5,751 bases of DNA from a virus (lineage: Duplodnaviria > Heunggongvirae > Uroviricota > Caudoviricetes). The DNA lies in the IMG/VR virus record IMGVR_UViG_2713896788_000030; one strand, 5' to 3'. The notes under the pieces were generated by a model. The model did not search any database. It saw only the letters and a list, made by a program, of their open reading frames with translations, and was not told the DNA's origin. Both the position numbers and the translations under genes were made by a program. The number at the start of each line of letters is the position of its first letter. Position 1 is the first letter of the stretch. This document shows, piece by piece, positions 1 to 5,751 of the stretch.

Positions 1-459
1 TTTTCTTTTTTCTTTTGTAATAGTGTCTTTTGTGTCCCCCTGTTTTGAGGGATAGCAATCCCCTAATTTGAGGGATGTTTTATCCCTCGTTTTAGGGGAT
101 TTTCCCTCGTTTTGAGGGATGTCCCTCATTTTAGGGGAACCTCCCTCGTTTTGAGGGATGCACCATTCTGAGATGTTTTTATTTGGTCCAAACATGCCGC
201 CTTGCTGCTTGATAATATTCATTNNNNNNNNNNNNNNNNNNNNNNNNNNNNNNNNNNNNNNNNNNNNNNNNNNCCCATAGGTTTTACGCAGAATGGCAAG
301 CAGCACTTTAAACTGTCGCTTGGTCAGATCTGCGCCTGAATAAGCCTCAATCAGCATATTTGATAGTCTGGCGTAACCATCATCGAGATCTGCCACATTA
401 CGCTCCTGTTCGGCAAAGTTACCTCTGCCGAAGTTGAGTATTTTTGCTGTATTTGTCAT
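1..459 (-). CDS. O: Replication initiator O, N-terminal part; the gene runs off the left edge of the window and is interrupted by the N run at 224-273
   Basis: Reverse-complement translation from the ATG at 459-457 gives MTNTAKILNFGRGNFAEQERNVADLDDGYARLSNMLIEAYSGADLTKRQFKVLLAILRKTYG, which matches my recollection of the lambda O N-terminus. After the gap the frame resumes with MNIIKQQGGMFGPNKNISEWCIPQNEG and continues through the iterons. The six-frame track missed it because the N run breaks the ORF. Confidence 0.88.
   Translation of the reverse strand, partial: MTNTAKILNFGRGNFAEQERNVADLDDGYARLSNMLIEAYSGADLTKRQFKVLLAILRKTYGXXXXXXXXXXXXXXXXXMNIIKQQGGMFGPNKNISEWCIPQNEGGSPKMRDIPQNEGKSPKTRDKTSLKLGDCYPSKQGDTKDTITKEKRK
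35..159. repeat. Origin of replication (ori-lambda type): six tandem ~18-19 bp iterons (O-protein binding sites) lying inside the O coding sequence, with an A+T-rich stretch at 1-34
   Basis: Directly seen tandem copies of the dyad motif TCCCTCGTTTTGAGGGAT and variants at about 35-53, 58-76, 83-100, 103-120, 122-138 and 142-159. Each is an imperfect inverted repeat (TCCCTC ... GAGGGA). A pyrimidine-rich tract ttttcttttttcttttgtaatagtg adjoins them. Confidence 0.85.
224..273. other. Run of 50 N (assembly gap or masked bases) inside the O gene
   Basis: Fifty consecutive n characters. The flanking O residues (…ILRKTYG on one side, MNIIKQQ… on the other) suggest about 30 codons are missing, so the gap is probably a fixed-length placeholder rather than true size. 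Confidence 0.95.
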
Positions 460-469
460 AATGAATCCT

Positions 470-546
470 GTGGATTGATCCAGTAATTCCCTCAGAATTG
501 CATATCAATTTGCTTAGAGTCCCCGGCGGCCACCGGGGATTTTTTC
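470..546 (+). ncRNA. oop: oop-like antisense RNA (promoter pO plus intrinsic terminator), antisense to the 3' end of cII
   Basis: Candidate promoter TTGAGT (434-439), 17-bp spacer, CATAAT (457-462). The transcribed region contains GATCCAGTAAT…CCTCAGAA, as I recall for lambda oop. It ends in the GC hairpin CCCCGG-CGGCCA-CCGGGG (521-538) followed by a T-run (540-545). The RNA is antisense to the cII-like 3' end and the O start. Confidence 0.6.
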
Positions 547-788
547 TTTGTGATTCCATCCAATGCATACTTAAAAGCCCTGCTAATCGGACTGATGTCT
601 GATGCCATTCCGAAAGCACACAAGACCGAAGCAATAAATCTCCAGTCCGTTCTGCTTATCTTCGATTCATGACAGCCAATCATCTTTGCCAGACCGCGCT
701 GGGTAAGCGTTGACAGGTTGATGAGTAAATCAGTTTCAGCGCGATCAATTTCTCGCTGTGTTGGCTTGCTGTAGCTTGCTTGTGCCAT
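492..788 (-). CDS. cII: cII-like transcriptional activator (lysogeny establishment)
   Basis: 98-aa ORF immediately upstream of O and downstream of cro on the same strand. The C-terminus …KKKSPVAAGDSKQIDMQF resembles the lambda cII C-terminus (…SEQIQMEF as I recall). Size and position are syntenic with cII, and the oop terminator overlaps its 3' end as in lambda. Confidence 0.75.
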   Translation of the reverse strand: MAQASYSKPTQREIDRAETDLLINLSTLTQRGLAKMIGCHESKISRTDWRFIASVLCAFGMASDISPISRAFKYALDGITKKKSPVAAGDSKQIDMQF

Positions 789-856
789 TTGTTAATTTTC
801 CTATATTGATATTGAGTTATAGCGGCACACCCAATGGATTTGCCGCTGATGTTTGC

Positions 857-894
857 TCACCCGGTTAGAGGTGAAAGGCCATGATGAAAGAGCG
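857..894 (-). promoter_or_regulatory. nutR candidate: boxA-like element plus boxB hairpin on the minus-strand transcript, between cro and cII
   Basis: Minus-strand RNA reads CGCUCUUUCAU (boxA-like, plus coordinates 884-894), a 9-nt spacer, then the hairpin UCACCU-CUAACC-GGGUGA (857-874). The 6-nt loop CUAACC and the 9-nt boxA-boxB spacing are identical to the nutL candidate. Confidence 0.6.
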
Positions 895-902
895 GGTACT
901 GC

Positions 903-1121
903 TTAGGCGGCTTTGTTACTGGATGGAGGGAAAACATCATCCAAAGAACATTGGCACCCTAACTTCCTGAGGCCTTCTACGATCATTCGGCAATCGTTAA
1001 GGCCAGGAGTACGGATATTCAGCTCATAGTTGGCGATGCGGGATTGCCCCCAACCAATTGCCGAAGCTAGTACAGCTTGCGAAACTCCGATTTTTTTTCG
1101 CTGCTGGGCAATTTTGTTCAT
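903..1121 (-). CDS. cro: Cro-like HTH (XRE-family) repressor; start chosen at the internal Met of the 85-aa track ORF
   Basis: MNKIAQQRKKIGVSQAVLASAIGWGQSRIANYEL… contains a helix-turn-helix motif. The ATG at 1121-1119 is preceded by AGGGAG at good spacing, whereas the longer start at 1160 lies inside the operator region with no SD. It is divergent from cI across an operator-rich spacer, and the C-terminus …SSNKAA is of the 434/lambda Cro type. Confidence 0.8.
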   Translation of the reverse strand: MNKIAQQRKKIGVSQAVLASAIGWGQSRIANYELNIRTPGLNDCRMIVEGLRKLGCQCSLDDVFPPSSNKAA

Positions 1122-1229
1122 TGCGGTCTCCCTAGCATTAATCACACACCCATTACACACAATTTGTGATTAACAGTCAACCTCAATTCGTGTACAGAGT
1201 TCAATCACGTTGCGTGTTACATTTAAGGG
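1122..1229. promoter_or_regulatory. OR switch region: divergent PR (minus strand, cro) and PRM (plus strand, cI) with repressor operators
   Basis: Inverted arms TTAATCACA (1138-1146) and TGTGATTAA (1165-1173), plus a third AATCACG element at about 1203-1209. On the minus strand TTGACT (1180-1175), a 17-bp spacer and TGTAAT (1157-1152) form a near-consensus sigma70 promoter aimed at cro, with an operator arm in the spacer. The cI ATG sits at the very end of the spacer, compatible with a short or leaderless PRM transcript. Confidence 0.7.
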
Positions 1230-4482: not shown

Positions 4483-4851
4483 ATGTCAAACATCAAAAAA
4501 TACATCATTGATTACGACTGGAAAGCATCAATAGAAATTGAAATCGACCATGACGTAATGACAGAGGAAAAACTTCACCAGATTAATAATTTCTGGTCAG
4601 ACTCTGAATACCGACTCAATAAACACGGCTCTGTATTAAATGCTGTATTAATCATGCTGGCGCAACATGCTCTGCTTATAGCAATTTCAAGCGACTTAAA
4701 TGCATATGGTGTTGTGTGTGAGTTCGACTGGAATGATGGAAATGGTCAGGAAGGATGGCCTTCAATGGATGGTAGCGAAGGAATAAGAATTACCGATATC
4801 GATACATCAGGAATATTTGATTCAGATGATATGACTATCAAAGCCGCCTGA
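4483..4851 (+). CDS. ea10: Ea10-like early protein (122 aa)
   Basis: 122-aa ORF with SD GAGGA 9 nt upstream, in the position and of the length of lambda ea10, immediately upstream of cIII/kil/gam. I do not recall the lambda Ea10 sequence, so identity is by synteny and size. Confidence 0.75.
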   Translation: MSNIKKYIIDYDWKASIEIEIDHDVMTEEKLHQINNFWSDSEYRLNKHGSVLNAVLIMLAQHALLIAISSDLNAYGVVCEFDWNDGNGQEGWPSMDGSEGIRITDIDTSGIFDSDDMTIKAA

Positions 4852-4876
4852 GCGCGGCGTTACCGCATACCAATAA

Positions 4877-4897
4877 CGCTTCACTCGAGGCGTTTTT
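4877..4897 (+). terminator. Terminator-like hairpin in the cIII leader
   Basis: CGCTTC-ACTC-GAGGCG (one G-U pair) followed by TTTTT (4893-4897), 26 nt upstream of the cIII start. It could be a partial terminator or a regulatory leader structure. Confidence 0.45.
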
Positions 4898-4923
4898 CGT
4901 TATGTATAAATAAGGAGCACACC

Positions 4924-5088
4924 ATGCAATATGCCATTGCAGGGTGGCCTGTTGCTGGCTGCCCTTCCGAATCTTTACTTGAACGAATCACCCGTAAATT
5001 ACGTGACGGATGGAAACGCCTTATCGACATACTTAATCAGCCAGGAGTCCCAAAAAATGGATCAAACACTTATGGCTATCCAGACTAA
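4924..5088 (+). CDS. cIII: cIII (54 aa), inhibitor of FtsH that stabilises cII
   Basis: Translation [54 protein letters not shown] matches my recollection of lambda cIII. SD AAGGAG 6 nt upstream. Below the length cutoff of the supplied ORF track. Confidence 0.9.
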   Translation: MQYAIAGWPVAGCPSESLLERITRKLRDGWKRLIDILNQPGVPKNGSNTYGYPD

Positions 5089-5200
5089 ATTCACTATCGC
5101 CACTTTTATTGGCGATGAAAAGATGTTTCGTGAGGCCGTCGACGCTTATAAAAAATGGATATTAATACTGAAACTGAGATCAAGCAAAAGCATTCACTAA
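5057..5200 (+). CDS. kil: Kil (47 aa), host cell-division inhibitor
   Basis: [47 protein letters not shown] is the 3' portion of the 89-aa track ORF. SD AGGAG 8 nt upstream of the ATG at 5057. It overlaps the cIII 3' end and the gam 5' end, as in lambda. Confidence 0.85.
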
Positions 5201-5571
5201 CCCCCTTTCCTGTTTTCCTAATCAGCCCGGCATTTCGCGGGCGATATTTTCACAGCTATTTCAGGAGTTCAGCCATGAACGCTTATTACATTCAGGATCG
5301 TCTTGAGGCTCAGAGCTGGACGCGTCACTACCAGCAGATCGCCCGTGAAGAGAAAGAGGCAGAACTGGCAGACGACATGGGAAAAGGTCTGCCCCAGCAC
5401 CTGTTTGAATCACTCTGCATCGATCATTTGCAACGCCACGGGGCCAGCAAAAAAGCCATTACCCGTGCGTTTGATGACGATGTTGAGTTTCAGGAGCGCA
5501 TGGCAGAACACATCCGGTACATGGTTGAAACCATTGCTCACCACCAGGTTGATATTGATTCAGAGGTATAA
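5155..5571 (+). CDS. gam: Gam, RecBCD inhibitor (138-aa long form; the 98-aa GamS form starts at the internal ATG at 5275)
   Basis: [18 protein letters not shown]…[15 protein letters not shown]…[20 protein letters not shown] matches lambda Gam as recalled. Only the internal start at 5275 has a strong SD (AGGAG at 5263-5267). Confidence 0.93.
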
Positions 5572-5576
5572 AACGG

Positions 5577-5751
5577 ATGAGTACAGCACTCGCAACGCTG
5601 GCAGGGAAGCTGGCTGAACGTGTCGGCATGGATTCTGTCGACCCACAGGAACTGATCACCACTCTTCGCCAGACGGCATTTAAAGGTGATGCCAGCGATG
5701 CGCAGTTCATCGCATTGTTGATCGTCGCCAACCAGTACGGCCTTAATCCGT
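5577..5751 (+). CDS. bet: Bet (Red-beta single-strand annealing recombinase), N-terminal part; continues beyond the window
   Basis: Starts 5 nt after the gam stop. Translation MSTALATLAGKLAERVGMDSVDPQELITTLRQTAFKGDASDAQFIALLIVANQYGLNP matches the lambda Bet N-terminus as recalled. Confidence 0.93.
   Translation, partial: MSTALATLAGKLAERVGMDSVDPQELITTLRQTAFKGDASDAQFIALLIVANQYGLNP

Follow-up and report, generated by a model that had tools for sequence, protein, structure and literature searches.

Which known phages does the early regulatory region in the virus record IMGVR_UViG_2713896788_000030 (Caudoviricetes) come from, and can its immunity genes be assigned to a single one of them? The record is a stretch of 5,751 nucleotides, referred to here at its full length as the window; its + strand is equivalent to the leftward (pL) strand in lambda. 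The original prediction, made from the letters themselves, described it as a mosaic with an imm21-type core in a lambda-like backbone. We conclude, with a probability of about 95%, that the window is the early regulatory region, from the 5' end of the replication gene O to the 5' end of the recombination gene bet, of a natural Stx1 (Shiga toxin 1)-converting lambdoid prophage of the VT1-Sakai/Sp15/CP-933V type, and that this region combines at least seven modules that differ in their nearest relatives.

An early region already known from O157:H7

The window has the gene order of a lambdoid early region, namely O, cII, cro, OR, cI, OL/pL, N, cIII, kil, gam and bet, with divergent transcription from pR and pL (open reading frame map and Pfam), and this order agrees with the annotations of lambda, phage 21 and VT1-Sakai. 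When the window was searched against 50,697 phage records (megablast), about 430 of them matched, and one record, VT1-Sakai (AP000400), covered it as a whole at 99.6% identity over 5,701 aligned bases, a full-length near-identity of the early region that places the window in the VT1-Sakai/Sp15 type. VT1-Sakai is prophage Sp15 of Escherichia coli O157:H7 Sakai, CP-933V of EDL933 is of the same type, and gene content, gene order and junctions are identical to those of the window; from 882 to 4331, the window and VT1-Sakai are 100% identical. The same arrangement is present at 80% coverage or more in 83 of 5,426 complete E. coli genomes, mostly O157:H7 and including EDL933 and Sakai, and an O157 genome may have up to nine places that match the window. 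The closest match among the complete genomes is a 63-kb record from O157:H7 strain PNUSAE146744 (99.9%).

Because 21 positions differ between the window and VT1-Sakai, the window is a close variant and not the Sakai prophage itself. Nineteen of these positions are grouped in 4842–5415 (cIII-kil-gam), among them a 1-bp indel upstream of gam, and the other two are 639 and 641. At some of the sites in 4842–5415 the window has the lambda base, and at others it has a unique base; the cluster resembles a short patch of conversion for which another resident lambdoid prophage was the donor. Positions 224–273, inside gene O, are a run of 50 N, for which VT1-Sakai has 98 ordinary coding bases, so the run must be a mask or gap whose length is not preserved.

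Modular mosaicism is textbook knowledge for lambdoid phages. The mosaic described here is itself already known, being that of a published Stx1 prophage (AP000400, published in 2000), and in the GenBank record of VT1-Sakai, N already bears the label phi-21-like, SieB is called P22-like, the red/gam genes are called lambda/933W-like, and six iterons are annotated. As a discovery, a published prophage and a known natural mosaic region carry little weight. What the present analysis adds are the breakpoints at base level, the recognition of two phage 21-type shoulders around an mEpX1-type core, and an intragenic chimera in N. The original prediction had also held that uniform identity to a single reference phage would speak against a mosaic. 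VT1-Sakai does provide such identity in a formal sense, yet it is the same mosaic, so the mosaicism is not refuted.

A repressor core of one type between shoulders of another

The window was compared with lambda (NC_001416, positions 30,000–41,000), phage 21 (OL657228, a genome described in PMC9119081) and four other phages, and identity was tabulated per 100-bp bin. Identity to each reference is bimodal, either at least 94–100% or undetectable, with sharp switches between the two. The homologous spans are 275–1910 and 2850–3543 for mEpX1, 1851–2886 for HK544, 3450–4327 for HK140, 3496–5751 for 1H12, 274–881 and 3159–3543 for phage 21, and 4243–5751 and 1–553 for lambda; such pairwise identities alone give neither the direction nor the order of the module exchanges.

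The immunity core, comprising cro, OR, cI and OL (882–3158), is 99.8% identical to mEpX1, while the same region gave no nucleotide match to phage 21 or lambda (blastn), save for a stretch of 69.5% identity where cI encodes its C-terminal domain and a patch of 62 bp at the 3' end of the gene. The genes cro (903..1121, − strand, 72 amino acids, Pfam HTH_3) and cI (1230..1877, + strand) are both 100% identical to mEpX1 at the nucleotide level. The repressor, which has helix-turn-helix and S24 peptidase domains (Pfam Peptidase_S24, 3e-26), would be 215 amino acids long if translated from the ATG at 1230 or 212 amino acids from the ATG at 1239. Cro is 21% identical to 21 Cro and 27% to lambda Cro; CI matches 21 CI at 41–42%, an identity confined to the C-terminal domain, and lambda CI at 48%, mostly through this domain, where identity to lambda reaches about 65%. 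Three putative operators lie at OR (1155–1171, 1179–1195 and 1203–1219), with divergent pR and pRM (VT1-Sakai annotation and pattern search), and three putative operators of mEpX1 type lie at OL (3083–3099, 3110–3126 and 3135–3151, + strand), together with an mEpX1-type pL at 3125–3153 (+ strand), as annotated in VT1-Sakai. The putative operators of the window are of an AATCAC-N5-GTGATT type, those of phage 21 of a ATTTAAGA-N2-TCTTAAAT type, and those of lambda are TATCACCGCCAGTGGTA. Thus, the cI repressor and cro of phage 21 have no nucleotide counterpart in 882–3158, and its operators are replaced at both OR and OL by a different sequence type. Judged from its sequence, the repressor-operator system that defines immunity is of the mEpX1 type, not of the phage 21 or lambda type.

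Phage 21-type sequence stands on both sides of this core. The first shoulder (274–881) is 94.9% identical to phage 21 overall and about 100% from 566, and includes the O N-terminus, cII, tR1 and the boxB of nutR; per 100-bp bin, 601–881 are 99–100% identical, and the start of the module at about 566 was read from junction strings. Here cII (492..788, − strand, 98 amino acids, Pfam Phage_CII, 1e-32) encodes a protein that is 91% identical to 21 CII and 35% identical to lambda CII, and a TTGC-N6-TTGC motif within the gene (766–779) is the predicted CII-binding site of pRE. Aligned with phage 21 and mEpX1 and supported by a hairpin fold, nutR (858..893, − strand) consists of boxB-R (858–873) and boxA-R (CGCTCTTTCA, 884–893), and the homology to phage 21 stops inside it, at 881. 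The boxA-R CGCTCTTTCA is 3 nt shorter than that of phage 21 and mEpX1 (GCTCTTTAACAG...), and VT1-Sakai has the same form as the window. The second shoulder (3159–3543, 97.7%) begins at the pL transcript start and includes boxA-L, boxB-L and about the first 62–64 codons of N. In nutL (3202..3241, + strand, by alignment), boxA-L (GCTCTTTAACA, 3202–3212) is followed by the boxB-L hairpin (3222–3241), which folds at −8 kcal/mol with a z-score of −5.35. Both boxB-L and boxB-R are identical to their phage 21 counterparts, so that a phage 21-type arginine-rich motif in N would find its matching boxB at nutL and nutR, and the phage 21 type of cII is likewise present, with a right boundary inside the cII 3' end.

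mEpX1 is alike from 275 to 1910 (cII, nutR, cro, OR and cI; 96.6% overall, about 100% from 566) and again from 2850 to 3543 (OL, pL, nutL and N residues 1 to about 62; 98.6%), and so has the same immunity and N/nut type. It differs in having two other genes after cI, another N tail, a Nun-like gene after N in place of sieB, and recombination genes of RecT type and replication genes of DnaC type.

The flanks are lambda-like, as had been claimed for Gam, Kil, cIII and the N-termini of Bet and O. Positions 4332–5751 are 98.5% identical to lambda over 1,420 bp, with 22 mismatches and no gaps (blastn, NC_001416), and therefore gene lengths and spacings are as in lambda. This block, all on the + strand, comprises ea10 (4483–4851, Pfam DUF2528), the cIII thermoregulator (4911–4969, Rfam Lambda_thermo, 88.5 bits), cIII (4924–5088, Pfam Lambda_CIII), kil (5057–5200), gam (from 5155 or 5275 to 5571, Pfam Gam) and the first 58 codons of bet (5577–5751), and identity to the lambda proteins is 99.2% for Ea10, 100% for cIII, Kil and Bet residues 1–58, and 95.9–97.1% for Gam. 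In an Rfam scan of the window, the known cIII thermoregulator was the only element to pass, and two weak iteron matches were due to chance. Identity to lambda (blastn) is 94% in 4243–4327 and 90.7% in 274–553, the latter covering the O N-terminus and the last 60 or so nucleotides of cII. Between these flanks (554–4242), lambda matches only in two short patches, at 1536–1708 (69.5%) and 1851–1912 (98.4%), and protein identity to lambda is 22% for N, 27% for Cro, 35% for CII and 48–51% for CI. With the boxB hairpins being those of phage 21, the statement that N, the nut boxB, cI, cro and cII are unlike lambda is correct.

The 5' part of O (1..458, − strand, ATG at 458–456) contains a lambda-type origin, and its product is 97% identical to both lambda and 21 O over 60 residues (96.7% for the N-terminus compared with lambda); the O C-terminus and P are outside the window. 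Outside an iteron insertion, the nucleotide identity of this region to lambda, phage 21 and HK140 is 98–99%. Six 18-bp ori iterons of ATCCCTCAAAACGAGGGA type map to 36..159 (− strand, VT1-Sakai annotation mapped to the window), compared with four in lambda, phage 21 and HK140, and the window has 39 extra bases; the 82% identity of 1–223 to lambda (blastn) is explained by this single 39-bp gap, six iterons standing against four. An O N-terminal DNA-binding domain that is 97% identical, with iterons of the lambda sequence type inside O, marks a lambda-type replication module. However, a lambda origin of the flanks is less specific than it may seem, since 4332–5751 are also 97.5% identical to phage 21, likewise without gaps. 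The flanks are thus nearly as close to phage 21 as to lambda, and the term lambda backbone is unspecific.

Junctions, the N chimera and the origin of the mosaic

Within N, the phage 21 type does not extend to the end of the gene. N (3352..3624, + strand, 90 amino acids, Pfam N_peptide, 3e-17) is identical to phage 21 N over residues 1–62 in a protein alignment, including the arginine-rich motif GTAKSRYKARRAELIAERR, so that the match originally predicted for the motif extends to the whole of this part. By contrast, the last 28 residues (63–90) are a tail of P22 gp24/HK140 type (...LPNVAIYAAGYRKSKQLTAR) and not the lambda/21 tail (...GRQKIK..PLI). The crossover zone is 3450–3543, a 94-bp stretch common to phage 21, mEpX1 and HK140. 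As read from these alignments, N is an intragenic chimera that carries a tail of P22 gp24 type behind an arginine-rich motif and central region of phage 21 type. It is not the N of the Stx1 phage H-19B, which has 127 amino acids and the motif RSRRRER (PMC3526286).

Behind N follows sieB (3641..4222, − strand and thus against the pL direction), a superinfection-exclusion gene of P22/HK140 type with 193 amino acids (Pfam SieB, 1e-25; phrog_1301), which at the nucleotide level is 98% identical to HK140 and 89% to ST104, and whose protein is 23% identical to lambda SieB. The N tail and sieB belong to one segment (3450–4327) with 98% identity to HK140 and 89% identity to ST104, a P22-like phage. 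HK140 has central N, the N tail and sieB in common with the window, but has another repressor and another N arginine-rich motif, and keeps ral; ST104 has the same N tail motif. Phage 1H12 is 99.2% identical from 3496 to 5751, but it has another repressor and a P22-type N arginine-rich motif in common with gene 24 of ST104.

The left junction (4243..4331, + strand) falls in the interval of 4223–4482 in which it had been expected. Lambda homology begins at 4243, upstream of sieB, and the junction ends in a ral-less joint at 4328–4331, where the four bases TACT stand for 340 bp with ral and orf28 of lambda and HK140. This joint, which shows no microhomology, is also included in the match to 1H12. 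The left junction is not the classical imm21 boundary, because phage 21 has ral and is without sieB. The right junction had been placed in cII or early O, and lambda homology indeed stops within cII, at 553, which is 62 nt from the 3' end of the gene. The natural break in homology between phage 21 and lambda (lambda 38,591) maps to about 553, just beyond an oop-like terminator at 516–543, and therefore the right junction is the classical imm21 boundary. The terminator, a strong hairpin, belongs to a probable oop antisense RNA (470..546, + strand), which overlaps the cII 3' end and is preceded by a promoter-like site at 434–462 (promoter and terminator scan). The gap-free alignment places 470..546 at lambda 38,675–38,599, which we take to be the coordinates of oop, and so this transcript is probably oop, with 434–462 placed as pO.

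Two further joints lie inside the region. Where cI ends lies a 62-bp linker (1851..1912, + strand) made up of the final eight codons of the gene (AQWPEETFG end), its stop codon and the 35 nt that follow. Lambda, 434, SfI, HK544 and mEpX1 have this linker at 98.4% identity, and the module switch occurs here, with mEpX1 homology extending to 1910 and HK544 homology starting at 1851. The next joint is at the rho-independent terminator of the immunity operon (2846..2869, + strand; terminator scan and VT1-Sakai annotation), where 2850–2886 are common to HK544 and mEpX1.

Taken together, these breakpoints suggest an assembly from a lambda-type origin and O N-terminus with six iterons; a phage 21-type cII-tR1-nutR segment (about 566–881); cro, operators, cI and pL of mEpX1 type; a two-gene cassette of HK544 type in the slot of rexAB; a phage 21-type nutL with the RNA-binding two thirds of N; a P22/HK140-type N tail with sieB but without ral; and a lambda/21-type ea10-cIII-kil-gam-bet block. 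Partners that have to recognize each other are inherited together: the arginine-rich motif of N occurs with its two boxB hairpins, CI and Cro occur with their six operators, CII with the pRE site, and the O N-terminus with the iterons. The breakpoints lie on short sequences common to many lambdoid phages, which are the 3' end of cI, the terminator of the immunity operon, the opening bases of the pL transcript, central N and the oop/cII 3' end. We infer, drawing on the established modular evolution of lambdoid phages, that phages and prophages residing in the same host recombined at these shared linkers by homologous crossover, whereas the ral-less joint (4328–4331) may have arisen by illegitimate recombination. 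Exchange at linkers also fits the co-transfer analysis in PMC9836094.

A simpler history would be a hybrid of lambda imm21 kind, with a lambda backbone and the complete immunity region of phage 21 (N, cI, cro and cII). Part of this picture is sound: the region is a mosaic with a lambda-like red/gam block and a lambda-type origin; the N-terminal two thirds of N, nutL, nutR and cII are of phage 21 type (95–100% at the nucleotide level); and matches to lambda imm21 and to phage 21 cover 46% of the window, with 97–97.5% identity. Phage 21 and lambda imm21 further share with the window tR1, the pL transcript start, boxA-L, boxB-L, the O N-terminus, the ea10-bet block and the right-hand break with lambda. 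However, there is no nucleotide homology to phage 21 in 882–3158 or in 3544–4331, and CI, Cro and all operators are of a different type from those of phage 21, which also has a lambda/21-type N tail, ral and four iterons, and has neither sieB nor a cassette after cI. With cro, the operators and cI not those of phage 21, the N tail and sieB of P22/HK140 type and a backbone that is not specific to lambda, the complete hybrid is very improbable, and a laboratory lambda imm21 hybrid is ruled out at the sequence level by cI, cro and the operators.

Nor is it credible, to any degree that matters, that the window is an assembly or scaffolding chimera, in which reads of several lambdoid prophages resident in a single O157 genome were joined. 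The 50-N run and the many similar lambdoid prophages in each O157 genome would make such an error conceivable, yet the arrangement is also contiguous in VT1-Sakai, which was sequenced independently, in phiSTEC801-Stx1a and in the 83 complete genomes, and each junction is found separately in the isolated phages mEpX1, HK544, HK140 and 1H12. We regard as equally remote a vertical divergence from a lambda-like ancestor without exchange of modules, in which the regulatory genes would simply have evolved faster. The gene order, which is fully lambda-like, and the similarity of the CI C-terminal domain to that of lambda would agree with it, but identity falls from 97–100% in the flanks to undetectable in the core within a few bases, and each divergent segment has its own close relative (98–100% identity), a phage that is unrelated in its other regions.

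Against the reading of the window as the early region of an Stx1 prophage, we found limits and nothing that contradicts it. The Stx1-prophage type is read from the early region, with stx1 lying outside the 5,751-bp window, and the operators, promoters and oop RNA are assigned by annotation transfer and consensus. For example, a search of the whole window with the operator pattern at three mismatches found six sites, compared with 3.3 expected in shuffled sequences, which is not a significant enrichment, so the VT1-Sakai annotation and the clustering of the sites are the basis of the operator calls.

The cassette behind cI and the meaning of the mosaic

The genes that take the place of rexAB behind cI form a cassette of two. 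ORF 1 (open reading frame 1; 2000..2281, + strand, 93 amino acids, ECs2991) gave no match in Pfam, PADLOC or NCBIfam, and ORF 2 (2288..2839, + strand, 183 amino acids, H0053/ECs2992), likewise without a match in these three, encodes a predicted coiled coil and C-terminal membrane helix; both proteins belong to PHROGs of no known function. The pair is 99% identical to genes 041/040 of HK544, which shares with the window the cassette and the following terminator (1851–2886, 99%) but has cI, cro and N of lambda type. Homology to RexAB was not found: Pfam, PADLOC, NCBIfam and PHROG give no link, and there is no nucleotide match to lambda rexAB, so that the likeness is one of position, strand and a two-gene layout with one membrane protein. 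The window agrees with lambda in gene order, the ea10-bet block, the cIII thermoregulator, the O N-terminus, the iteron sequence, the 62-bp cI-end linker and the region upstream of sieB, but differs in N, nut sites, cI, cro, operators, cII, SieB and iteron number, and lambda alone of the two has rexAB in this slot and ral with orf28.

Homologues of each cassette protein fall in about 21 clusters, many of them of metagenome proteins, and all named organisms among them are Enterobacterales. In every context examined, the pair is directly downstream of, and co-oriented with, an S24-type cI repressor, and these repressors differ in type and length (212, 215, 229, 237 and 240 amino acids). The contexts are HK544, the lambdoid prophage contigs on which the homologues named after Pantoea and Enterobacter (P0007 and P0010) are found, and another lineage of metagenomic origin (P0020), and the cassette occupies 3650–4489 in locus L005, 3702–4546 in L007, 3703–4528 in L010 and 3713–4513 in L013. 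The 183-amino acid protein has a variable small N-terminal domain, an invariant coiled-coil start (GGD-x-M-x-x-R-x-x-x-LE-x-x-V-x-x-IK) and a C-terminal hydrophobic helix. Its C-terminal half also occurs alone, as proteins of 90–135 amino acids: a profile search of 1.84 billion representatives gave 584 matches, most of them of this length and covering only the coiled-coil and membrane-helix part, and none of ten sampled matches had a Pfam family above the cut-off. Profile searches against PDB sequences returned coiled-coil noise or no match for the cassette proteins, and AlphaFold2 models are of low confidence (183-amino acid protein: predicted local distance difference test, pLDDT, 65, predicted template modelling score, pTM, 0.22; 93-amino acid protein: pLDDT 46.5). 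Homology of the 93-amino acid protein to the N-terminal domain of the 183-amino acid protein was ruled out (hhalign probability 0.5%), as was a link of the cassette to Tai tail-assembly-interference systems, since HK544 is only a challenge phage in that paper.

One possible, though doubtful, reading is that the cassette is an undescribed exclusion or abortive-infection module expressed in the lysogen, made up of a soluble 93-amino acid protein and a membrane-anchored one of 183 amino acids. This reading is suggested by a cassette that moves without regard to immunity type (at least five different cI repressors), by the absence of a + strand terminator between cI and the cassette in the terminator scan, and by the appearance of ECs2991 among the proteins tabulated in a study of the O157 proteome in rumen fluid (PMC3936929). 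The block ECs2989–2995 was found to be lineage-I specific by comparative hybridisation (PMC1890555). The cassette is a reasonable candidate for inclusion in screens for prophage-encoded defence genes.

The window illustrates that the immunity region is separable into sub-modules, with N/nut and cII shoulders of phage 21 type around a cI-cro-operator core of another type. The C-terminal tail of lambda N is its RNA-polymerase-binding region, and in the window N itself has recombined between the RNA-binding part and the C-terminal tail. As predicted from these assignments, the immunity specificity would be that of mEpX1, and neither that of lambda nor that of phage 21, while the N/nut specificity would be that of phage 21 and the replication specificity of lambda type. 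For Sp15-type Stx1 prophages, the prediction is a repressor immunity in common with mEpX1-type phages and an N specificity in common with phage 21, and both would bear on superinfection and cross-induction among the many prophages of O157:H7.

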